The notes: a model not told the origin generated them from the letters alone. DNA of 64,000 nucleotides from an uncultured Phocaeicola sp. (GCA_944321015.1 CALUJS010000006.1:6849-70848), one strand, 5' to 3'. Shown: positions 7,851 to 56,138, counted from the stretch's first letter. Made by a program: numbers and translations.

Positions 7851-9482
<1,632 letters not shown>

Positions 9483-9790: not shown

Positions 9791-10084
9791 AGTTTTCGTA
9801 TTTTTAAGTTTCTTGTTTGTTTTATTCACTTGCTCCAGCTATCTGTTTCAAGTTGGCACTAGGCTTTAAACGAAAAGCGTGCCAAACCGACAGCGACAGG
9901 CATAATGTCAGCACCAACTGCCATCAGTGACATCTTGACATAACCGTATGGCCGAGAACCGTCCGCCGCCCGACACCACACCGGCTTTTTGAATCATGAT
10001 TGTCAGCCACGGCTCATCACGCTCCCGAATGATTGCGGCAGGGAGTCGGGGCTTTACCTTAATATATAGATATAGAGGGATGAA

Positions 10085-10179
10085 CCGCTGCATATCTCCG
10101 CTCGTGACCGGCCATATCCCCGGAGCCGAGCGTCCATATCCCGCGACGCGAGCCTTCATATTGACGCTCAACCGGGTGA
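10085..10179. repeat. 22-bp-phased ATAT/CGCTC-GAGCG array, locus R1 (4 units)
   Basis: ATAT cores at 10092, 10114, 10136 and 10158, exactly 22 bp apart. Units include atatctccgctcgtgaccggcc and atatccccggagccgagcgtcc. The 15-mer cgagcgtccatatcc is the reverse complement of 21308-21322 in locus R2. The array is intergenic, between divergent groES and hisH. Confidence 0.8.
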
Positions 10180-10252
10180 ATTTTAGCCCCAAGACAGAAT
10201 AATCACAGAAAAGTTTTCGGGTAATAATAGCGCATCTATTCACTTTTCTTTT

Positions 10253-10260
10253 TATTTTTG
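10253..10260 (+). promoter_or_regulatory. Candidate -7 promoter box TATTTTTG upstream of hisH
   Basis: Exact TAnnTTTG match 62 nt upstream of the hisH ATG at 10322. I found no clean -33 TTTG at the expected spacing. Confidence 0.35.
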
Positions 10261-10916: not shown

Positions 10917-11660
10917 ATGATTGACATTATCCCGGCCATCGACCTTATGGATGGCAAATGTGTTCGTCTCTCACAGGGCGACTATGAAAGCCGGAAGACC
11001 TACTCCGACAACCCGTTGGAAATGGCGAAGGCGTTTGAAGACAACGGCGTGCGCCGTTTACATCTGGTAGATTTGGATGGCGCCAAGTCCAATCACATTG
11101 TCAACCATAAAACATTGGAGAACATTGCCGCCCATACGTCTTTGACCATTGATTTCGGAGGAGGCATCAAGACAACTGCCGACTTGGAGGCCGCATTCGG
11201 CTGCGGTGCCGCCATGGTGACCGTGGGCAGCGTTGCCGCTACCCGTCCGGAAATGTTTATCTCGTGGCTGCAACGCTTCGGCGCGGAACGCATCATCCTG
11301 GGAGCCGATGTCAAAAACGGGCGCATAGCCATCAATGGCTGGCTGGAAGACAGTCAATTGGAGCTATTCCCCTATCTGGAAAACTATCATCGGAAAGGAG
11401 TCTGCCAAGTGTTATGCACCGACATCAGTCGCGACGGCATGTTGCAAGGCCCTTCCGTGGCGCTCTATCGCGACATGATGACACGTATGCCCGGCCTTTA
11501 CCTCATCGCCAGCGGCGGTGTAGGCTCCATCGACGACCTGCACCAGCTCGGGCAGGCGGGCATCCCGGCCGTAGTTGTGGGAAAAGCAATCTACGAAGGA
11601 CGTATTACTCTGGATGACATCAATCGTTTCATCGCCCGCGAAGGCAAAAATCAAGTCTGA
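10917..11660 (+). CDS. hisA: ProFAR isomerase
   Basis: 247 aa starting [23 protein letters not shown], with 'LHLVDLDGA' and 'ASGGVGS'. It lies between hisH and hisF. Confidence 0.93.
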
Positions 11661-11665
11661 TTAAC

Positions 11666-12424
11666 ATGTTAGCAAAACGAATCATTCCCTGCCTGGACAT
11701 TAAGGACGGGCAGACTGTTAAAGGTACCAATTTCGTAGACCTGCGTCAGGCCGGCGACTCGGTAGAATTGGGCAAGCATTATTCGGATGAAGGTGCCGAC
11801 GAGTTGGTGTTTCTCGACATCACGGCCAGTCATGAGAAACGAAAAACATTCGTAAACCTCGTGCAGCGAGTGGCAGCCAACATCAATATCCCTTTTACCG
11901 TGGGCGGCGGCATCAACGAACTGGCGGATGTGGAACGTCTGTTGCAGGCCGGGGCCGACAAAGTGTCGGTCAATTCGGCAGCCATACGGTGTCCGCAACT
12001 TATTGACGACATAGCTTCGCATTTTGGCTCGCAAGTATGCGTCGTGGCCATTGATGCACAAGAAACGCCCGACGGCTGGATGTGCTATCTCAACGGAGGC
12101 CGCATCAGAACCGACAAAAGCTTGTTCGACTGGGCAAAGGAAGCGTGCGACCGTGGCGCGGGCGAAATCTTGTTTACCAGCATGAACCACGATGGCGTAA
12201 AAACCGGATATGCCAACGATGCACTTGCCCGCTTGGCCGACATGTTGCCCGTGCCGGTCATCGCATCGGGCGGAGCCGGCACCCCGGAACATTTCAAGGA
12301 CGCATTTATAAAAGGAAAAGCCGACGCCGCGCTTGCGGCCAGTGTTTTTCACTTTGGAGAAATAACAATTTCAGAATTAAAGCAGTATCTTTGCCGCCAT
12401 AACATCAATGTGCGGCTAAGATAA
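11666..12424 (+). CDS. hisF: Imidazole glycerol phosphate synthase, cyclase subunit
   Basis: 252 aa starting [20 protein letters not shown], with '[11 protein letters not shown]' and 'IASGGAG'. Confidence 0.95.
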
Positions 12425-13047: not shown

Positions 13048-13743
13048 ATGCTCATCGACTACCAACATGTGGATATCAATCAACAGGAGCACACCGTGCT
13101 GACCGATGTCAACTTTCATCTGGACGAGGGAGAGTTTGTCTACCTCATCGGCAAGGTAGGCACGGGAAAAACCAGTCTGCTCAAGACTTTCTATGGCGAA
13201 CTTCCCGTAGCCACGGGTAAGGCCCGGGTCTTGGACAATGACATGACTGCCATCCGCCAAAAGCACATCCCGGCATTGCGACGCCGGCTCGGAGTTGTCT
13301 TCCAGGACTTCCAGTTGCTTACCGATCGAACGGTTCATGACAATCTGGTCTTCGTGCTCAAGGCCACAGGTTGGAAGAACAAGCCCGAGATGCAGGCACG
13401 CATTGAAGAAGTATTGGCTTTGGTGGGCATGAAAAACAAAGGTTATAAGTTCCCTCACGAACTGTCCGGCGGAGAACAACAGCGCATTGTGCTGGCACGT
13501 GCCATACTGAACCAGCCCAAAATCGTATTGGCCGATGAGCCGACCGGCAACCTGGATGAAGAGACCAGTTGCCAAATCATGCAATTGTTGCGTGAAATAA
13601 GCGCCAAAGGTTCGGCTGTGGTCATGACGACGCATAACCTGAAGCTGGTACACGACTTTCCGGGCATCGTATATCAATGCCACGGACACCACATTGAGGA
13701 AATCACACAAACTTTTTACCAACAGCAATCAATTAACAACTAA
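13048..13743 (+). CDS. ftsE: Cell-division ABC ATPase FtsE-like protein
   Basis: 231 aa with Walker A 'GKVGTGKTS', ABC signature 'LSGGEQQR' and Walker B 'VLADEPT'. No ftsX-type permease is adjacent. Confidence 0.75.
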   Translation: MLIDYQHVDINQQEHTVLTDVNFHLDEGEFVYLIGKVGTGKTSLLKTFYGELPVATGKARVLDNDMTAIRQKHIPALRRRLGVVFQDFQLLTDRTVHDNLVFVLKATGWKNKPEMQARIEEVLALVGMKNKGYKFPHELSGGEQQRIVLARAILNQPKIVLADEPTGNLDEETSCQIMQLLREISAKGSAVVMTTHNLKLVHDFPGIVYQCHGHHIEEITQTFYQQQSINN

Positions 13744-15093: not shown

Positions 15094-16254
15094 ATGAAAG
15101 GACAATTTCCCGTCGACAGGTTCCGTAACCTGCCGACGCCCTTTTACTATTACGATACAAATCTACTGCGCGAGACACTGAATGCCATCAGAAGCGAAGC
15201 GGGCCGATATGATAATTTCCGGGTGCACTACGCCGTGAAGGCCAACGCCAACCCCAAACTTCTGACCATCATACGCGAAGCCGGACTGGGAGCCGATTGC
15301 GTAAGCGGCGGAGAGATACGCGCCGCGTTGGCAGCCGGATTTTCCCCGGCAGACATTGTTTTTGCCGGGGTGGGTAAAGCCGACTGGGAAATCAATCTCG
15401 GTCTCGACAACGACATCTTTTGTTTCAACGTCGAGTCGCTGCCCGAACTTGAAGTCATAAGCGCCCTGGCCGTTGCCCACGGAACAACGGCTCGTGTGGC
15501 CCTGCGCATCAATCCGGATGTCGGCGCGCACACCCATGCCAACATAACCACCGGAAAAGCCGAAAACAAGTTTGGCATCAGCATGGAGCAACTGGACGAA
15601 GTGACCGATGCGGCCCTGCGGCTCCCCGCCATTGAACTCATCGGGTTACACTTCCACATTGGCTCACAAATACTCGACATGGGCGATTTCGTTGCATTGT
15701 GCAATCGCATCAACGAGCTTCAGGCCCGGCTTGCCGCGCGTCGGCTCATCCTTCCGCACATCAACGTGGGCGGCGGACTGGGCATTGATTACCATCATCC
15801 CAACCGCCAGTCTGTGCCCGATTTTGCGTCCTATTTCGCCTGCTATCATAAACACCTGCGCCTGCAACCGGGACAGACGGTACATTTCGAGCTGGGACGT
15901 GCCGTGGTGGGACAATGCGGTTCGCTCATTACCCGCGTGTTATACGTCAAACAAGGCACTCACAAGCAGTTTGCCATTGTCGACGCAGGAATGACCGACC
16001 TTATCCGTCCGGCCCTCTATCAGGCTTACCATAAGATAGAAAATATTTCCTCCGAACGTCCGGTGGAACCTTACGACGTGGTAGGCCCCATCTGCGAATC
16101 GTCCGATGTGTTCGGCAAGGCTGTCGACCTGAATGCCGCCTCGCGCCACGATTTGCTGGCCCTGCGCTCGGCCGGAGCCTACGGAGAAATCATGGCCTCG
16201 GGCTACAATTGCCGCGCCCTGCCCGGCAGCTATACTTCGGAAGAGCTGGCCTGA
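15094..16254 (+). CDS. lysA: Diaminopimelate decarboxylase
   Basis: 386 aa with the PLP-lysine region 'HYAVKANANP', 'NVGGGLGIDY' and 'GPICESSD'. Confidence 0.92.
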   Translation: MKGQFPVDRFRNLPTPFYYYDTNLLRETLNAIRSEAGRYDNFRVHYAVKANANPKLLTIIREAGLGADCVSGGEIRAALAAGFSPADIVFAGVGKADWEINLGLDNDIFCFNVESLPELEVISALAVAHGTTARVALRINPDVGAHTHANITTGKAENKFGISMEQLDEVTDAALRLPAIELIGLHFHIGSQILDMGDFVALCNRINELQARLAARRLILPHINVGGGLGIDYHHPNRQSVPDFASYFACYHKHLRLQPGQTVHFELGRAVVGQCGSLITRVLYVKQGTHKQFAIVDAGMTDLIRPALYQAYHKIENISSERPVEPYDVVGPICESSDVFGKAVDLNAASRHDLLALRSAGAYGEIMASGYNCRALPGSYTSEELA

Positions 16255-16280
16255 ACCGCCCGCTCCTCTTCCACCCTTTC

Positions 16281-16320
16281 AACCCAAATCGGTCCTCATG
16301 CCGGTTTGGGTTGATTTTAT
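16281..16320 (+). terminator. Rho-independent terminator after lysA
   Basis: AACCCAAA (16281-16288) pairs with TTTGGGTT (16305-16312), followed by GATTTTATT. It begins 27 nt after the lysA stop. The 5' arm 14-mer AACCCAAATCGGTC recurs at 33950-33963. Confidence 0.7.
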
Positions 16321-16358
16321 TCTAATCTGAAGCATCCCTTCCCTCCGGCACGATATGG

Positions 16359-16424
16359 TGAACTACTGTACTTCGCATAGTGAATTACTGTACTTCATAT
16401 AGTGAACTACTGTACTTCGCCAAG
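16359..16424. repeat. Three tandem 22-bp units, each containing the near-palindrome GAAsTAC-T-GTAsTTC
   Basis: The units are tgaactactgtacttcgcatag (16359-16380), tgaattactgtacttcatatag (16381-16402) and tgaactactgtacttcgccaag (16403-16424). They are intergenic, between lysA and hisS. Confidence 0.85.
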
Positions 16425-21184: not shown

Positions 21185-21299
21185 AATAAATACACACATT
21201 TGTTGCCGCAAAAATAGGCATTTTAACAAGGGCAGACAAACATTCCTTTGCAATTCTGCCGCAAGAAGGGAATAAGTTCGCATAAATCAGCCTTCGCCT

Positions 21300-21395
21300 G
21301 ACGGAGGATATGGACGCTCGCAAGCGGACATATGGATGCTCATGAGCGGGAATATGCCCGCTCACGGCTGAGGATATGGACGCACAACGCCATTA
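21300..21395. repeat. 22-bp-phased ATAT/CGCTC-GAGCG array, locus R2 (4 units)
   Basis: ATAT cores at 21308, 21330, 21352 and 21374, exactly 22 bp apart. Units include atatggacgctcgcaagcggac, atatggatgctcatgagcggga and atatgcccgctcacggctgagg. It lies between the susD terminator and the GH2 start. Confidence 0.85.
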
Positions 21396-37619: not shown

Positions 37620-37714
37620 ACCCAGAATATGGTTGGCCACATCTGTGCATATTGACAGCCGAGCGCGGGAATATGCACGCTAACGCCCGGACATATCACT
37701 CGTCGGCATGCGCC
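37620..37714. repeat. 22-bp-phased ATAT array, locus R3 (4 units), overlapping the 3' end of the GH25 gene
   Basis: ATAT cores at 37627, 37649, 37671 and 37693, exactly 22 bp apart. Units include atattgacagccgagcgcggga and atatgcacgctaacgcccggac. The last unit contains the GH25 stop codon (37696-37698). Confidence 0.8.
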
Positions 37715-44254: not shown

Positions 44255-44258
44255 ACAT

Positions 44259-44310
44259 ATCTGTCCATATTTCTGCTTGCAAGCGGCTATATGGACAGAT
44301 AAATAAACAA
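44259..44310. repeat. 22-bp-phased ATAT array, locus R6 (2 units; forms a perfect 12-bp inverted repeat)
   Basis: ATCTGTCCATAT (44259-44270) pairs with ATATGGACAGAT (44289-44300). ATAT cores at 44267 and 44289 are 22 bp apart, and the unit atatttctgcttgcaagcggct fits the family. It starts 5 nt after the stop of the 958-aa gene, at the left edge of the AT-rich islet. Confidence 0.65.
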
Positions 44311-44388
44311 TGGTTTTCGGAGTATAGACTATCTCTTTTCTTTAGGGACATTTATTAAAAAGCTCTGATTACTCACATATTTACTTTT

Positions 44389-45171
44389 TTATTCTTTGCC
44401 AATAGATTTTTGCTCCTCCGTATCTCTATATTTCAATATTGATTTCCAATTTTCAACTTTCTTTTCTAATGTTTTTGCATTTGTATTACTCGTTGACTCT
44501 GCAGCTACAGAATCGATTTCTAATTTCATATTCTCAATATAAGAAAATGCCTCTTTGCCATTGCAAACAATTAAATGAATGTTAGGATATTGTTTCAGTA
44601 AATTCTCAATATCATTCAAATCTTCATTTGTAATATTAGCATCGGAACTTCCTTCACGTTCACAACTAGATAATACATCCCACAAAGCAATATGATGTTC
44701 TTTTAAACATTCTTCTTTTTCTTTATAATCATTAAATCCTTTATTGCCATGAAACAAGCAAGCTATAATCTTCCAAAAGCTATTTCTTGAGGAGGCATAA
44801 TATTCACCTTTCTGCAATGATTCCTCCCCCGGCATTGTACCCAATATTAAGATCTCCGAGTTTTCATCAATCAACGGCGGCAATGACTCTTTTAGTCGAG
44901 ATGCAACTTGTGTCTGCATCAACGTTGTGTCATCATTTTTCTCTTTTACAATTTCACCTTTCAGTATTCTTATTTTCTTAGACTCAATTAATTTGTCAAA
45001 CTTCTCAATCGTCATATCGGTGATATGAAAATCGTCTCTACCATAAAAACCGATCGCACGCATTTCGTCACGAATTTGTTTTTGCTCGCTTCTGAACGCG
45101 TTACATCTTTTAATAATAAGTTTTCTCAACAGAGCTATTTCAGCCTCTGTAAATACATTTTTTCCTTTCAT
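44389..45171 (-). CDS. UDG-superfamily family-6-like DNA-deoxyinosine (hypoxanthine) glycosylase with a ~95-aa N-terminal extension
   Basis: 260 aa. The C-terminal ~165 aa carry 'ILILGTMPGEESLQKGEYYASSRNSFWKII', matching my memory of HDG-type glycosylases (G-x-x-P-G/S ... YY...N.FW). The N-terminal segment 'MKGKNVFTEAEIALLRKLIIKRCNAFRSEQKQIRDEMRAIGFYG...' matches no family I recognise. Confidence 0.6.
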   Translation of the reverse strand: MKGKNVFTEAEIALLRKLIIKRCNAFRSEQKQIRDEMRAIGFYGRDDFHITDMTIEKFDKLIESKKIRILKGEIVKEKNDDTTLMQTQVASRLKESLPPLIDENSEILILGTMPGEESLQKGEYYASSRNSFWKIIACLFHGNKGFNDYKEKEECLKEHHIALWDVLSSCEREGSSDANITNEDLNDIENLLKQYPNIHLIVCNGKEAFSYIENMKLEIDSVAAESTSNTNAKTLEKKVENWKSILKYRDTEEQKSIGKE

Positions 45172-45186
45172 GATAATGTCTTTTTA

Positions 45187-46911
45187 TTAATAGTCTTGTA
45201 CAATTGTCTTATCTATTAAAAATAAATCATTCCCCACACATCTAATGTCATAACTATAACCATCAGCCATATAAAGATTAGGATAGCCCTCGCGTTTTTT
45301 GAATCCTAATTCTTTTTCAAAATATTCCTGTATAGCTATACCTATTCTTGGATCATCCTTTTTCAATGGCAACAAATCAGTATTAAGTTTTATGTGTATA
45401 GTACAAACAGAATACCACTCAGGTAACAAAATAACCTCATAATCAGCATATACTCCATTTATACCTTTTTCTACACCTAGCGAAATCCATCCTCTCAAAT
45501 CTTTAATATTTTTCATACGAATTATTTCCTCTGCTTTTTGTCCTATACGCGCTTTTCCAAATCCATCTTTCGTTATCTTGTTTAAGATAGAACCTACTAT
45601 TTTATGTTCATCAACATAAGAGGCTAGCACTCCACCCGACTTATAACATTCCTTAAGAGATTGTAGACTACTAGTTAAGAACTCATAAACCAATGGGTAC
45701 CCCGGTACTGATGTATAAGAGGGAATTACGATTTGGGCATATGTATCATTATTAATTGGTACTCCATTCTTATCAGCAAAATAGCATTTGTTGTCCTCAC
45801 AAATTACTATATTATTATACAAAGGGAAAAATCCTAATAAATTTTCAATACGATAAAGTTCCTCTCCTTTTTTATTTAGAGTTGAAACATTTATTCTATT
45901 ATTGCCATCATCTAGAGTTGACACAATATTCCCAACATAAGTTATATTATCCATCATTCCTAAAGCACATTGATATTGGGCGTTTCCAATGAGTTTTCCA
46001 TTCAAATCTATCTGCCTCCAAACATATTTATCATTTTGAAACATCGCTACAGAATCTACAAAAGGTGAAATGCTAAGAACTTCGGGCAATCTTTGTATTC
46101 TTTCTCCTTTTTCATTGCAAATAAAATTATCAAGAACACAATAATTATTGGCAATAATAGGTTTTAACATCATACTTGAACTCGGAGCATCTCCACTAAC
46201 TTCAAAAAGCTCTTTCCCATTTGTATCTATGGCAACATAGACTTTTCTATCTTCTCTATAAACTATAGCTTTTCCGTCATGAAAGGGATTTACTCTGTCA
46301 TAAATAGGTTCTATAACTACATGACCATTTGTATCTATAAATCCATATTTAGTATTTTCCAACATAAACCAAGCTCGTTTATCTGAAAAGAAAGGGCTTA
46401 CTAAAATAATTTCTTTTCCGTTATAAGGATTTAACCAAAAAGCAGTATCTCCCGTAGCAGTCAAATAATGCACACGCCCCTCCAATGATGCTACCGGAAG
46501 AAGTCCTTCACTAAATAGACCTCCAGCGACATAACCTTCAGGATCACCTAATTGTTTTGGTTCTTCTGACGCTATAAAATATTTGTAAACATCTATTCCT
46601 TCTTGAGAATTATATTCTCGAATTCGAAAAACTCCATTCACTGCATATGATGGTCTTTCTGTAAATTTATCCTCAAATAGTACTTTCCCATCTACTCCTA
46701 TTAATCCCCATTTCCCATCTTTTTCTGTTTGAAACGCTAAATGGGTAATTTTAGGGAAGGTATCATCTTTATTATCACCATTACAACTCGTCATAAACAT
46801 AGCGACGATGCCAATAATGGTAACTTTAAAAATCATCCATCCATGTTGCTTGTCTCTGTTTCTTTTTAATACAAAGCTATTCCAATTCATACTGATAACA
46901 TTTTCTCGCAT
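45187..46911 (-). CDS. WG-repeat (KWG-like) lipoprotein
   Basis: 574 aa with a TM/lipobox 'IIGIVAMFMTSC'. WG-type repeats include 'DGKWGLIGVDGKVLFEDKF' and 'KYGFIDTNGHVVIEPIYDRVNPFHDGKAIVY'. The start codon is ambiguous: several Met residues precede the TM segment. Confidence 0.65.
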   Translation of the reverse strand: MRENVISMNWNSFVLKRNRDKQHGWMIFKVTIIGIVAMFMTSCNGDNKDDTFPKITHLAFQTEKDGKWGLIGVDGKVLFEDKFTERPSYAVNGVFRIREYNSQEGIDVYKYFIASEEPKQLGDPEGYVAGGLFSEGLLPVASLEGRVHYLTATGDTAFWLNPYNGKEIILVSPFFSDKRAWFMLENTKYGFIDTNGHVVIEPIYDRVNPFHDGKAIVYREDRKVYVAIDTNGKELFEVSGDAPSSSMMLKPIIANNYCVLDNFICNEKGERIQRLPEVLSISPFVDSVAMFQNDKYVWRQIDLNGKLIGNAQYQCALGMMDNITYVGNIVSTLDDGNNRINVSTLNKKGEELYRIENLLGFFPLYNNIVICEDNKCYFADKNGVPINNDTYAQIVIPSYTSVPGYPLVYEFLTSSLQSLKECYKSGGVLASYVDEHKIVGSILNKITKDGFGKARIGQKAEEIIRMKNIKDLRGWISLGVEKGINGVYADYEVILLPEWYSVCTIHIKLNTDLLPLKKDDPRIGIAIQEYFEKELGFKKREGYPNLYMADGYSYDIRCVGNDLFLIDKTIVQDY

Positions 46912-47245
46912 CCCGACTCCCCGAGAATGAGGTTTACAAAAAAGAAAGTGTGGGAGTCATATCATCTATCTTGTCAGAGGCTCTGGTAAACCCGAATGTA
47001 AATAGACAATATCCCCACACTTGTAGCGTATATGGCTTGAATAAGCATATACAGACACAAGTGATGAGCGCGATTGCCATACCTTACATTCATGTTAAGT
47101 TTACCAGACTTTCTGACAAAGGTAAAAGCTACACTTTCATCAATCAAAAAATATGTATGTCACAGCCGGACTTCACCAGCGGACTTGACAAAGATACGAA
47201 CTTTTAATTGATGAGCAAACTCATAGAGGGGATATTGCTATATTT

Positions 47246-47707
47246 TTAGTCTGCTATAAAGTCGTAAAGATCGGGGTCTTCGTGCATCAGGTCGTATTCC
47301 GTGGGATCGATGTCCCAGATGTTGACATCTGTTTCACCTTCGAGCGTCAGGTTACGGCGGTGCAGCGGGTCGAGCTCGTTGCGTTTGGGGGCCGGAATGC
47401 GCTTTGCTTTCCCCTGGCTGACAAGGGCCTGACATTGCTTCAGGGTCAGCGGTTTGGCGGATAGAATTTCATAATACTCCACCGTTTTCTTCGGATGTCC
47501 GGCCTTCGACTTTTCTACCGGATGGCGCTTGGCTTTGTCCTGCTTGACTTGGGGAACAGTTTTCACCTCGAGCACATAGCGATATTGACGCTGGGCGGCA
47601 AGCAGAACAGGGCACAGAAGCAGCAATGCGAACAGGCATCTGCGCCAACAGATTGCGTTTATTTTCATGGTTGTCATCGTTTGTATGGTTAAAATTGTTG
47701 ATTTCAT
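47246..47707 (-). CDS. Hypothetical secreted basic protein (153 aa, or 140 aa from the alternative start)
   Basis: It has a signal-like segment 'MKINAICWRRCLFALLLLCPVLLAAQ' (alternative ATG at 47668), a K-rich centre and an acidic C-terminus. No known domain was recognised. Confidence 0.45.
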   Translation of the reverse strand: MKSTILTIQTMTTMKINAICWRRCLFALLLLCPVLLAAQRQYRYVLEVKTVPQVKQDKAKRHPVEKSKAGHPKKTVEYYEILSAKPLTLKQCQALVSQGKAKRIPAPKRNELDPLHRRNLTLEGETDVNIWDIDPTEYDLMHEDPDLYDFIAD

Positions 47708-47794
47708 TGCAATGTCATCTGCTTTTGCTTTTTACGTTGATGTTGCAAATATAGAGGGACAAAGCGACAAAACATGTCGTTCGGCAAAAAATCT

Positions 47795-47888
47795 TCAGAG
47801 ATATGTTCGGGCGCAAGCGCCCATATGCTCAGTCGTGAGCGGACATATGTTCGCTCGTGCGCGTCCATATCCACAGGCAACGGGCAAA
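47795..47888. repeat. 22-bp-phased ATAT/CGCTC-GAGCG array, locus R4 (4 units)
   Basis: ATAT cores at 47801, 47823, 47845 and 47867, exactly 22 bp apart. The units are atatgttcgggcgcaagcgccc, atatgctcagtcgtgagcggac, atatgttcgctcgtgcgcgtcc and atatccacaggcaacgggcaaa. It lies just 3' of the symporter gene. Confidence 0.85.
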
Positions 47889-47983
47889 AAAACAGGCTTT
47901 GAACCGGTCACCGCTTACACACGTAAGCCGATAAACCGACTCAAAGCCCGAAATGACCCAACGGATTTAGGCCGAATGCCCTA

Positions 47984-49555
47984 TCAATGTCCGTTGAAGA
48001 ATGTGTAAAGTGCTATCATCACGAGAATCAGCAATACCCACAAAATGACTACCGATGAAGCAGGTTTTTCCAACTGCCCGTAATCCAAAGCATTTCCCTG
48101 CGGCCGTTTGTCCAGCAGGCTGATGATTGTCATACCGATGCAGATGGCAACAAACAAATCAAATGAAAGCATCATGAAATGCGGCCAGATGCCTGCATAT
48201 TGTTCAGGCGGGAACACCCACAAATACAGAATGCCGACCAGAATGCTGAATGCCGTGCCAAATGTCAAGGCAAAATTGGCAGCACGCGTGGTAGCACGCT
48301 TCCAGAATACGCCAAATAGGAATACGGCCGACATGGGAGGAGCGATGAAGCCCAACACGGACTGGAACACATTGAATAGGTTGAGTCCCTTGATGCTGTC
48401 AATGGCGATGCATATCACGATGGAAATGATGGCGCCGACCACCGTCACAAGACGTCCCACGCGGATGATTTCTTTCTCTGACGCAGCCGGATTATATTTC
48501 TTCAGATAAATGTCTATGGTAAACACGGTGCTCAACGCATTCAGTGCCGAACCTACGGTGCTGACCAAAGCTGCCGTCAGCACAGCCATGACCAGACCGA
48601 CCATACCGACGGGGAACAAATTGGTCACCAATGTCATATAGGCCTCATCGGGATTCTGCAACGTGGGGAACAAAGCAAAGCAGATGATACCGGGAATGAT
48701 GTACAAAGGCACATCCAGAATTTTCAGCCATCCCGTAAAGTTCGCGCCAAGCTGTCCCTGCTTCAGGCTTTTGGCCGCAAGCACAGGCTGCACCATGGAC
48801 TGGTCGGTACACCAGAACCACACACCCATGACCGGATAGCCCAACAAGATGGGCAACCATGGGAATTCCGGGTCGTCATTGGGACGGAACAGGTTCCAAT
48901 AATCGGCAGGCACAGCGGCAGTCAGCCCTTCAACGCCTCCGACTTTCACCAAACCGGCCACGGTCAATACAGCCGACACGACGATGAGCAGTGCCATCTG
49001 GAATACATTGGTATAGGCCACGGCCTTCAAACCGCCGGCTATCGTGAAGAAAGCCGATATAAGCAGCAGAATCAATGCCGACTGCCACATCGGGATGTCA
49101 AAGATTTGACGAATCAGAATGCCGCCGGCAAAAAGCGTCAACGCCAACCATGAAATCAGAATCGTCACAATGGTGTACCAAGCCAGAATGTTACGCGTGG
49201 ACTGGCCGAAACGGCGTCCCATGAACTCCGGTAGCGTGGTCACCTTGGCACCCAAATAACGGGGCGCAAAGACAAATGCCAGCAAGCAAATGAAAACAAA
49301 TGCATACCATGCATAATTACCGGATACCACACCCGTGGTAAATCCGGCACTGGCAGAAGCAATCAACATGGACGGCCCCACATTGGTGCCCCACATGGAA
49401 AAGCCGATGTGATGCCAGCTCAACGAATGTTCAGCCATGAACAGGCTGCTTCCCTTCTTACGTTTCAGACTGGCCCATATGCCGATGGCCAACAATATGA
49501 TGAAATAAACGGCTAATATGCCCCAGTCCAAAGGTTCCAAAAATTTTGCGCTCAT
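47984..49555 (-). CDS. Sodium:solute symporter family (SSS/SGLT-like) transporter
   Basis: 523 aa and polytopic, with about 13-14 hydrophobic segments by eye. SSS-like features include 'HSLSWHHIGFSMWGTNVGPSMLIASASAG' and 'TLPEFMGRRFG'. Confidence 0.8.
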   Translation of the reverse strand: MSAKFLEPLDWGILAVYFIILLAIGIWASLKRKKGSSLFMAEHSLSWHHIGFSMWGTNVGPSMLIASASAGFTTGVVSGNYAWYAFVFICLLAFVFAPRYLGAKVTTLPEFMGRRFGQSTRNILAWYTIVTILISWLALTLFAGGILIRQIFDIPMWQSALILLLISAFFTIAGGLKAVAYTNVFQMALLIVVSAVLTVAGLVKVGGVEGLTAAVPADYWNLFRPNDDPEFPWLPILLGYPVMGVWFWCTDQSMVQPVLAAKSLKQGQLGANFTGWLKILDVPLYIIPGIICFALFPTLQNPDEAYMTLVTNLFPVGMVGLVMAVLTAALVSTVGSALNALSTVFTIDIYLKKYNPAASEKEIIRVGRLVTVVGAIISIVICIAIDSIKGLNLFNVFQSVLGFIAPPMSAVFLFGVFWKRATTRAANFALTFGTAFSILVGILYLWVFPPEQYAGIWPHFMMLSFDLFVAICIGMTIISLLDKRPQGNALDYGQLEKPASSVVILWVLLILVMIALYTFFNGH

Positions 49556-55675: not shown

Positions 55676-56022
55676 ACAATAAATCCATGAAATAATACGA
55701 AGAAAAGCCCACTTTTACATCGACACGGATGCAATAATTTGCAATTGATACAACAAAAGCGCACAATGCTTGCCAAGAAACAGTATCTTATCCTTTTGCC
55801 GACAATTATTTGCGAAGTGATTGCCCCGAGCGCATTGAAACAGACCAATTAGTTTAATCGGCATCTGCATGATTCTCGGTGGAGTCGTGGTGATAAACTT
55901 ATTTTCGGAATCGGCAGGACATTGACTTGTCCATATCTAATATAACATCAAAAAGATTGAGACAAAAGACAAGAAATAAATTATCCGGACAGGCGAAAAC
56001 GTTATCAGGCACTTGGCCTGGG

Positions 56023-56138
56023 CATCAGATTATCACCGCCCTAAGCGTGCATATCACCGCTCGCGAGCGCGGATATGCACGCTCACGTCCCTTCATATTG
56101 CCGCTCACGAGCGGTGATATGAAGAGATAAACGGGATG
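56023..56138. repeat. 22-bp-phased ATAT/CGCTC-GAGCG array, locus R5 (4 units plus one degenerate)
   Basis: ATAT cores at 56051, 56073, 56095 and 56117, exactly 22 bp apart, with a degenerate ATTA at 56029. Units include atatcaccgctcgcgagcgcgg, atatgcacgctcacgtcccttc and atattgccgctcacgagcggtg. It lies just 3' of the HAD gene. Confidence 0.85.

Follow-up and report, generated by a model that had tools for sequence, protein, structure and literature searches.

We analyzed a 64-kb stretch of DNA from an uncultured Phocaeicola sp. (hereafter, the window), together with the stretches just beyond both of its ends (approximately 76 kb in all). Its intergenic spacers hold a family of short arrays in which the tetranucleotide ATAT recurs at intervals of exactly 22 bp, among them the array that is our focus, R5, at 47801-47888. 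Several described systems resemble these arrays in part. In Escherichia coli, repetitive extragenic palindromic (REP) sequences and bacterial interspersed mosaic elements (BIMEs) cluster in intergenic niches. The density of BIMEs, about one per 10 kb, is comparable to that of the arrays described here, and REP stem-loops protect the 3' ends of upstream mRNAs or uncouple expression within operons. Phased operators are another precedent: ArgR boxes are spaced at 21 bp, the OxyR site ATAG-N7-CTAT has a 22-bp repeat, MetJ binds arrays of metboxes, and plasmid iterons and ParR centromeres have periods of 20-22 bp.

REP sequences are defined by a GTAG or CGTC tag, high identity between copies, and association with a REP-associated tyrosine transposase (RAYT) (PMC3733652, PMC2817692). 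REP families are patchily distributed and reiterated in tandem (PMC3733652), and their proposed roles are in DNA topology, termination, and mRNA stability (PMC3733652, PMC2817692). The ATAT arrays are likewise short, imperfect intergenic palindromes, often located after operon ends, at approximately one locus per 10 kb, in clusters of fixed spacing with a patchy, lineage-specific distribution. The 18-mer consensus between cores is a palindrome, GGACGCTCG followed by CGAGCGTCC, which together with ATAT gives a unit in the 20-40-nt range typical of REP, with all of its pairing in the consensus; extragenic location holds for 8 of 8 arrays. In contrast to REP, the tag is ATAT rather than GTAG or CGTC, half of the arrays lack significant hairpin potential, and mean copy identity is approximately 54%, whereas REP copies are near-identical and usually number more than 100 per genome. 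Unlike BIMEs, which alternate in orientation with spacer motifs, the 22-bp units run head to tail in strict phase. No RAYT (Y1 transposase) was found among the genes of the window or of the flanking contigs. A preliminary description of this DNA had offered a REP/BIME-like identity as an alternative; it is a serious rival with respect to genomic niche, but the REP tag and copy identity are lacking.

BrickBuilt of Porphyromonas gingivalis has a 23-nt unit, AGAYCATARTATCCTCTCRTRTG, at approximately 19 dispersed loci with strain-variable copy number (PMC4596501). It is the nearest described relative in the Bacteroidales, being strictly intergenic and made of tandem AT-cored units without spacers, as the arrays here are (PMC4596501). 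It differs in having a leader and tail with IS5-like terminal inverted repeats and up to at least 18 near-identical units, whereas the arrays here have no such ends and consist of about four divergent units of the form ATATGGACGCTCGCGAGCGTCC with a period of 22. With phased operators the arrays share a two-turn period, dyad or direct units, two to five units per site, and a position upstream of, and in phase with, promoters. Known operator sites, however, have conserved recognition bases that are kept with the regulator across species, and their loci are few and functionally linked, or lie beside rep or par genes; the present arrays are degenerate and frequent, restricted to one species, and located beside unrelated genes. 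We would file the family as a kind of short intergenic palindromic repeat with a putative function, matching no described family. It had been said to fit no nameable repeat class, and this holds: there is no Rfam match, and neither MITE (miniature inverted-repeat transposable element) ends nor a transposase was found in the window.

Phasing and anatomy of the ATAT arrays

The window contains 335 ATAT sites, and 20 pairs of them lie exactly 22 bp apart. Every other spacing between 8 and 69 bp gives 0 to 6 pairs, except for two multiples of 22, namely 44 (14 pairs) and 66 (8 pairs). Runs of at least three ATATs at a fixed spacing occur at period 22 only, starting at 10070 (five cores) and at 21308, 37627, 47801, and 56051 (four cores each), and the remaining periods between 15 and 30 bp gave no fixed-spacing chain in the window. 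The two-unit pattern ATAT-N4-GCTC-N10, taken twice and followed by ATAT, gave five matches, compared with none in 100 dinucleotide shuffles. Tandem Repeats Finder (TRF), run independently, called a period of 22 at four ATAT loci. The 22-bp phasing reported in the preliminary description is therefore real, although its counts need revision: of the six array loci claimed, five are true chains and R4 is a single-unit hairpin, and the figure of 22 units includes terminal degenerate units, the window containing 17 complete core-to-core intervals.

Two further arrays, R0 and R7, each with four cores, lie just past the ends of the window and bring the family to eight arrays, or about one per 10 kb. 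These additional copies keep to the same spacing, and the core-to-core interval is exactly 22 bp in 23 of 23 cases. Array size is similarly uniform, with four cores in R0, R2, R3, R5, R6, and R7 and four to five in R1; decayed cores (ATTT, ATTA) are found at array edges. Apart from R4, no solitary GC-rich ATAT unit was found elsewhere in the window. All eight arrays are intergenic in every strain contig.

The tetranucleotide that flanks each 18-mer is ATAT in every unit. The 18-mers themselves are GC-rich (56-83%) and divergent, with 62% identity to the consensus (approximately 38% divergence) and a mean pairwise identity of 54%, compared with 36% expected for random sequences of the same composition. 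Despite this divergence, there are no indels in the 23 intervals, and the cores are intact even in R1 and R3, where the 18-mers have mostly lost the consensus. Dyad axes are spaced 11 bp apart, alternately at the center of an ATAT and at that of an 18-mer. The CGCTC/GAGCG mini-palindrome described previously is a property of the consensus, but its exact form, CGCTC-NN-GAGCG, is present in two units only. Conservation of the ATAT-GGA-CGCTC side is somewhat above that of its mirror image, and R2, R7, and R1 can therefore also be read as a 12-bp direct repeat, ATATGGACGCTC, plus approximately 10 variable bases.

Some longer sequences are common to distant arrays. As noticed earlier, R1 contains a 15-mer, CGAGCGTCCATATCC, that also occurs in the reverse complement of R2; 15-19-mers across a core are common to R1/R2, R2/R7, and R0/R4, and the first unit of R0 has the 16-mer TATCTGTCCATATTTC in common with R4. 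The likeness between loci ends at the array edge, with no conservation of the flanks, and no alignment register between arrays is preferred, from which it follows that no single composite element was copied to give the arrays. The data do not support a constant unit orientation with respect to the gene downstream once R5 and R7 are oriented by the block ATATGGAC. Of the seven occurrences of this block in the window, six are inside arrays. The sole occurrence outside an array, at 55929-55950 on the minus strand (GATATGGACAAGTCAATGTCC), contains a GGACA/TGTCC palindrome and lies approximately 95 bp from R6, beside a truncated open reading frame (ORF) of the SMR family, called in some strains; this occurrence may be what is left of a solo unit after decay.

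Location, folding, and strain variation of the arrays

R5 has cores at 47801, 47823, 47845, and 47867; no strand is assigned to it or to the other arrays, and on the minus strand its units begin ATATGGACGCGC, ATATGTCCGCTC, and ATATGGGCGCTT. A sodium:solute symporter gene with its stop codon at 47984 is followed by an intrinsic terminator, read from the sequence at 47886-47948 on the minus strand, whose stem, GGCTTTGA...TCAAAGCC, precedes a run of seven Ts and which is located between the gene and R5. On the other side, 51 bp downstream of the last core, is a -7 box of the Bacteroidetes type, TATATTTG (47746-47753, minus strand), with a TTTG -33 element 18 bp upstream of the box; it is assigned to a 153-amino-acid ORF (47246-47707). 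The order is symporter stop codon, terminator, array, and promoter of the next ORF. Relatives retain the terminator at this site without an ATAT array.

R0 (contig L171, 16941-17010, left of the window, four cores) shows the same order of stop codon, terminator, array, and promoter after a tricorn-type protease gene. R7 (contig L175, 18215-18284, right of the window, four cores) lies between the divergent genes DUF3078 and pyrG and is flanked by divergent -7 boxes. R1 (10070-10179; cores at 10070, 10092, 10114, 10136, and 10158, with a decayed ATTT at 10180) lies between divergent groES (minus strand) and hisH (plus strand), and its units are reversed relative to those of R2. The -7 box of hisH, TATTTTTG, is at 10253-10260, 95 bp from the last R1 core. 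R1 had been placed between divergent promoters, which stands for the divergent genes and for the hisH box, but no groES promoter was identified near R1. Between R1 and the groES start (~9790; 90-amino-acid product) there is approximately 240 bp of GC-rich untranslated DNA (9830-10070) without a TAnnTTTG box, and groES may have another type of promoter and leader. R0, R1, R5, and R7, at least four of the eight arrays, are probably in DNA that is not transcribed, as judged from their sequence context, because they lie past terminators and before promoters or between divergent promoters or genes.

R2 (21308-21395; cores at 21308, 21330, 21352, and 21374; units ATATGGACGCTC) is inside a polysaccharide-utilization locus, with the susD stop codon (21510) on one side and a glycoside hydrolase family 2 (GH2) gene, called start 21184, on the other. 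Upstream of GH2, at a distance of 95 bp from the last core, is a -7 box, again TATTTTTG (21209-21216, minus strand). R3 (37627-37714; cores at 37627, 37649, 37671, and 37693) has degenerate 18-mers; its last core overlaps the stop codon of a GH25 gene, and a promoter follows the array. The statement that five arrays lie 3' of a stop codon is literally true, but R5 is past a terminator, and R2, R3, and R5 precede the next gene's promoter, with 51-111 bp to its -7 box. R4, the single unit (44258-44300), has in-phase cores at 44267 and 44289 that sit in a perfect 12-bp inverted repeat, ATCTGTCCATAT / ATATGGACAGAT; it lies 4 bp past the stop codon of a Golvesin/fn3 gene and borders a low-GC island that varies between strains. 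R6 (56029-56138) consists of a decayed ATTA at 56029 and cores at 56051, 56073, 56095, and 56117, and lies 35 bp past the stop codon of a HAD hydrolase gene. R4 is between convergent genes, and R6 probably is as well. We note that R0 and R4, which have TATCTGTCCATATTTC in common, both border variable DNA. Beyond R0 (L171, 17269-22841) is a strain-variable block of defense or mobile type, with an AAA_14/DUF4143 ATPase, DUF6155, and a RhuM-family gene.

We compared the folding of the arrays with that of dinucleotide shuffles, as RNA and DNA z-scores. R4 (RNA z -8.5, DNA z -6.9) and R6 (RNA z -8.2, DNA z -6.1) fold far better than shuffles, forming long hairpins in which successive ATATs pair (two such hairpins in R6). 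R2 is clearly above shuffles (z -3.7 to -4.1) and R5 marginal (z -1.9 to -3.2); R7 gives z -0.7 on one strand and -2.5 on the other, and R0, R1, and R3 are no better than shuffles (z near 0). Single 18-mers fold only marginally above shuffles. In the unit alignment, in-register pairing of CCGCTC with GAGCGG is 61.1%, compared with 59.5% for shuffled columns and 30-40% with the partners slid out of register; relative to the shuffled columns, no covariation was found beyond the palindromic consensus. No T-run follows the array hairpins. Rfam gave no match on the arrays at gathering thresholds, and at E<=1 the sole hit in the window is unrelated (15524-15583). Given the marginal folding of single units, the lack of covariation, the z-scores near 0 of R0, R1, and R3, and the weak folding of R7, we rejected the hairpin as the defining feature: the feature common to all arrays is the ATAT phase. 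The earlier wording, a hairpin-capable palindrome, is apt for R2, R4, and R6, but R5 is marginal, R1 and R3 show no such capacity, and the pairing is that of the consensus palindrome.

Strain contigs 95-100% identical to the window retain R1, R2, R3, R5, and R6. R5 is present in 10 of 10 strain contigs with one single-nucleotide polymorphism (SNP), outside the cores. The sole length polymorphism among strains is one whole 22-bp unit, an extra copy in R3 in four strain contigs, with a 13-bp direct repeat at the bounds of the indel. In cores, 0 of 96 columns are variable, compared with 13 of 324 in 18-mers (Fisher P = 0.046); other A/T sites are 3.0% variable, which puts the chance of zero core SNPs at 0.05. 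As a sign of selection on the cores, the strain SNPs are suggestive only. SNP density is 4.0% in units and 3.7% in flanks, and the SNPs of R6 are mostly in loops. R4 is absent from strains with an alternative island at 44.3-47.2 kb. In the window, the island (44258-47240, GC 0.36) carries a WG-repeat protein and a UDG-family gene; its alternative alleles carry an Mrr-type restriction endonuclease or a GIY-YIG/transposase set.

What the arrays may be

Tentatively, we read the arrays as phased sites at which a protein would bind double-stranded DNA cooperatively and whose effect between operons would be architectural or insulating. The constants of the family, namely its period, intact cores, freedom from indels, four cores per array, and largely untranscribed spacers, are properties of double-stranded DNA, which favors a binding platform. 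The arrays would then be lineage-specific cis elements acting on double-stranded DNA. Each would form a lattice on one helical face, usually of four ATAT cores two helical turns apart with dyad axes at 11-bp steps, and a putative dimeric or oligomeric protein would bind cooperatively along that face, with ATAT supplying narrow-groove or flexible contacts and CGCTC/GAGCG supplying half-sites. The consequence would be architectural: the bound array would set the geometry of, or insulate, the spacer between an operon's terminator and the next promoter, and its niche would be that of REP/BIME elements in enterobacteria. The preliminary description had suggested a phased array that binds protein on one DNA face, and this is the suggestion best supported by the spacing, cores, size, location, and promoter phase of the arrays; protein binding, and any effect on transcription or topology, is what we infer beyond their observed geometry, invariance, location, and absence from relatives.

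The promoter phase refers to the distance between the nearest core and a TAnnTTTG box, which is 95 bp for R1, 95 bp for R2, 51 bp for R5, and 117 and 62 bp on the two sides of R7. All of these distances equal 7 mod 11, accounting for five of seven pairs; the boxes concerned are at 10253-10260, 21209-21216, and 47746-47753 in the window and at ~18398 and ~18156 on L175. The simulated chance that at least five of seven agree is P = 0.0012, or 0.006 with alternative candidate boxes. A rule of 7 mod 22 was tried and rejected, as R1, R2, R5, and R7 fit but R0 and R3 fail; what remains of it is the five of seven at mod 11. We regard a helical phase shared by promoter and core as a lead rather than a result, since it was noticed post hoc; several of the other statistics given here are likewise post hoc.

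Several points weigh against a binding platform. The box distances of R0 (136/145) and R3 (99/111) are off the phase rule, and the rule itself was relaxed from mod 22 to mod 11 after the data were seen. The 18-mers are very degenerate for a sequence-specific operator, and the binding protein remains putative. R4, and probably R6, lie between convergent genes and have no promoter to serve. Both form excellent hairpins, and structure may matter at least there; among strains, one stem pair of R6 changes from T-A to C-G, with a C-A intermediate in another strain. The depletion of SNPs in the cores is only borderline (P ~0.05). Finally, the nearest relatives sampled (contigs L036, L038, and L178) lack the ATAT family at the orthologous sites, which would be unusual for a conserved pair of regulator and site.

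The main rival reading, possible though on balance we doubt it, is that the arrays have no host function and are a neutral or selfish palindromic minisatellite of REP/BIME-like origin, seeded in spacers, amplified by slippage, subject to occasional gene conversion, and decaying, with the strict phase reflecting divergence by substitution alone. Much of their distribution suits such an origin. The arrays are lineage-restricted and absent at the orthologous sites of relatives, they are confined to insertion-tolerant spacers at approximately one per 10 kb, and R4 travels with a variable island. The whole-unit copy-number polymorphism with its flanking 13-bp direct repeat, the decayed edge cores ATTT and ATTA, the 15-19-mers across a core that R1/R2, R2/R7, and R0/R4 have in common, and the near equality of SNP density in units and flanks also fit. 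Decay by substitution, however, sits poorly with 0 indels in 23 intervals at approximately 38% divergence and with ATAT intact beside near-random 18-mers, and the uniform size of four cores is unlike the broad copy-number spread of ordinary minisatellites. Copying by a mobile element is at odds with the lack of register-specific homology between arrays and of conserved flanks, and no RAYT or other transposase was found in the window. A minisatellite also leaves unexplained the 21-22-bp period of unrelated repeats, both in relatives and at 16358 in the window (see below).

The preferred platform acts on DNA, whereas an element acting at the RNA level, in which stem-loops separated by AUAU protect mRNA 3' ends or uncouple operon expression and serve at convergent gene ends as bidirectional terminator-like hairpins, is unlikely for the family. 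In its favor is the RNA folding of R4 (z -8.5), R6 (-8.2), R2 (-3.7 to -4.1), and R5 (-2.4 to -3.2), together with position: R2 lies between susD and the GH gene, R3 at a stop codon, and R4 and probably R6 at convergent 3' ends. One compensatory stem change among strains and the concentration of R6 SNPs in loops point the same way. Against these, R0, R1, and R3 fold like shuffles and R7 does only weakly better on one strand, covariation does not go beyond the consensus, the hairpins are not followed by a T-run, and Rfam gives no match. A hairpin array would not need an exact 22-nt period. Location also counts against transcripts as the target, with R5 and R0 past terminators, R7 flanked by divergent promoters, and R1, amid divergent genes, upstream of hisH's promoter; arrays behind terminators or between divergent promoters likewise weaken the 3'-untranslated-region stabilizer proposed earlier. 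An RNA role may apply to the hairpin-rich subset R2, R4, and R6 rather than to the whole family.

We consider it very unlikely that the arrays are operators of one dedicated transcription factor, such as an AraC-type hybrid two-component system (HTCS). Predicted HTCS sites in Bacteroides are direct repeats of 12-16-bp boxes with a 21-bp period (PMC3878776). The best-kept block of R2, R7, and R1, the direct repeat ATATGGACGCTC plus approximately 10 variable bases, matches this layout, and R2 is in a polysaccharide-utilization locus, upstream of a promoter. The 22-bp period and the direct-repeat block fit, but the number of units (four sites per array, not two), the neighbors, and the absence of such sites from the orthologous promoters of relatives do not: eight arrays in approximately 76 kb stand beside unrelated genes (groES/hisH, pyrG, an aminotransferase, and a protease), and some are at convergent gene ends.

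To a BrickBuilt-type minisatellite carried by a MITE, or some other non-autonomous transposon, with ATAT as a possible duplicated target site, we give very little credence. BrickBuilt is likewise an intergenic Bacteroidales minisatellite without spacers, with a CATARTATC core in its 23-nt unit (PMC4596501), and each unit here can be expressed as an 18-bp insert plus a duplicated ATAT. However, there is no leader, tail, or terminal inverted repeat, likeness ends at the array edges without a preferred register, the unit is unrelated to that of BrickBuilt, the single indel is explained by the 13-bp direct repeat rather than by insertion, and no transposase was found in the approximately 76 kb. 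CRISPR arrays have repeats of 24-48 bp interleaved with unique spacers and cas genes close by, whereas iterons and partition centromeres are tandem repeats of 17-22 bp next to rep or par genes. We dismissed CRISPR, in agreement with the preliminary description (no spacers, a conserved core of 4 bp, and no cas genes in the window), coding repeats, also in agreement with it (every array is intergenic, and 22 is not divisible by 3), and plasmid iterons or partition centromeres (a chromosomal housekeeping context and no rep or par genes in the window).

Related genomes and other 22-bp repeats

The window carries the genes of a Bacteroidales chromosome (susC/susD, glycoside hydrolases, groES/groEL, the his operon, and hisS; approximately 50% GC). 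For two flanking proteins, the best-named homologues are in metagenome-assembled genomes of Phocaeicola, Bacteroides, Prevotella, and Mediterranea, at 76-86% identity; exact flanking proteins were found in ENA and Logan metagenome assemblies only, and the scaffolds that contain this DNA include ERZ28614565 scaffold_120 and ERZ28614706 scaffold_208. In contigs of relatives with an 81-95% identical flanking protein (L036, L038, L040, L178, L180, and L181; approximately 120 kb), no ATAT chain was found, compared with approximately 10 arrays expected at the local density.

Three of these relatives have unrelated 21-22-bp arrays of their own, with three to six dyad-symmetric cores in the same type of spacer. 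L178, from a human gut metagenome and with a 95% identical pyrG, has six GATRYRYATC cores exactly 22 bp apart at 13618-13737, the outer two being GATACGTATC and the inner four GATGTACATC; this array is approximately 50 bp past the yidC terminator, between convergent genes, on a contig without ATAT arrays. In L040, CACGTG cores are set in A/T spacers within a 21-bp array of 4.2 copies at 11679-11768. In L181, two 22-bp arrays stand side by side at 11644-11753, one of CACCCCGGTGG units and one of ATAACAG...CTGTTAT units. Both the L040 and the L181 arrays directly follow the symporter gene, at the site orthologous to R5.

The window itself contains an unrelated 22-bp repeat at 16358-16420 (GTGAACTACTGTACTTCGCATA, 2.9 copies), which has its top TRF score. 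It lies approximately 40 bp past the strong intrinsic terminator (16279-16314) of an Orn/DAP decarboxylase-family gene and approximately 150 bp before the hisS promoter, TACCTTTG; its layout and period are those of the ATAT arrays, but its sequence is different. Among tandem repeats with a TRF score of at least 50, the period is 21-22 in 10 of 13 in a Bacteroidaceae sample that is unselected but small, versus 4 of 53 in 758 kb of unrelated metagenome contigs, a crude control (P = 1e-6, or 6e-5 with the ATAT family counted once).

Among the matches listed in a scan of genome contigs for the two-unit pattern, most are other 22-bp minisatellites, in Segatella copri and others. None of the 120 listed metagenome loci matching the single-unit pattern is a true array; all are chance matches. 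A viral scan for the pattern gave one unrelated, perfect 22-bp repeat of 15 copies, GATATATCTGCTCGTCGATAGG, at 8689-9003 of a 76-kb IMG/VR viral contig (L174), with an iteron-like look. In S. copri (L014, L016, L017, L020, L022-L025, and L027), an orthologous locus has three to six copies of the 22-bp ATATCCTAGCTCTTCCAACAAC, with a second 22-bp repeat, TGCACATCAGCTGTTGTGCAAG, before them and a terminator hairpin after them; the genomes differ in copy number, and the locus looks like a transcribed unit.

A more speculative and rather doubtful possibility is that the ATAT family is one species' version of a wider, undescribed class of Bacteroidaceae/Bacteroidales mini-arrays, with three to six units, a 21-22-bp period, and lineage-specific dyad cores. 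ATAT, GATRYRYATC, CACGTG, CACCCCGGTGG, and the 16358 family would be its variants, recurring in spacers of one type and in some cases at orthologous sites. Such a class would point to either (i) a conserved DNA-binding or architectural system or (ii) a repeat generator with a two-turn ruler, with sites that turn over fast. The excess of 21-22-bp tandem repeats in related genomes, if it holds, would need an explanation.

If the arrays are neutral, they would still be a new kind of REP-like repeat and would provide markers of strain-level polymorphism; they could also break short-read assemblies and be mistaken for regulatory sites. If they are bound by a protein, they would be part of a chromosome-organizing or promoter-insulating system in gut Bacteroidaceae, in which nucleoid proteins and intergenic architecture are poorly known, and the ATAT cores and 22-bp phase would be built-in experimental handles.

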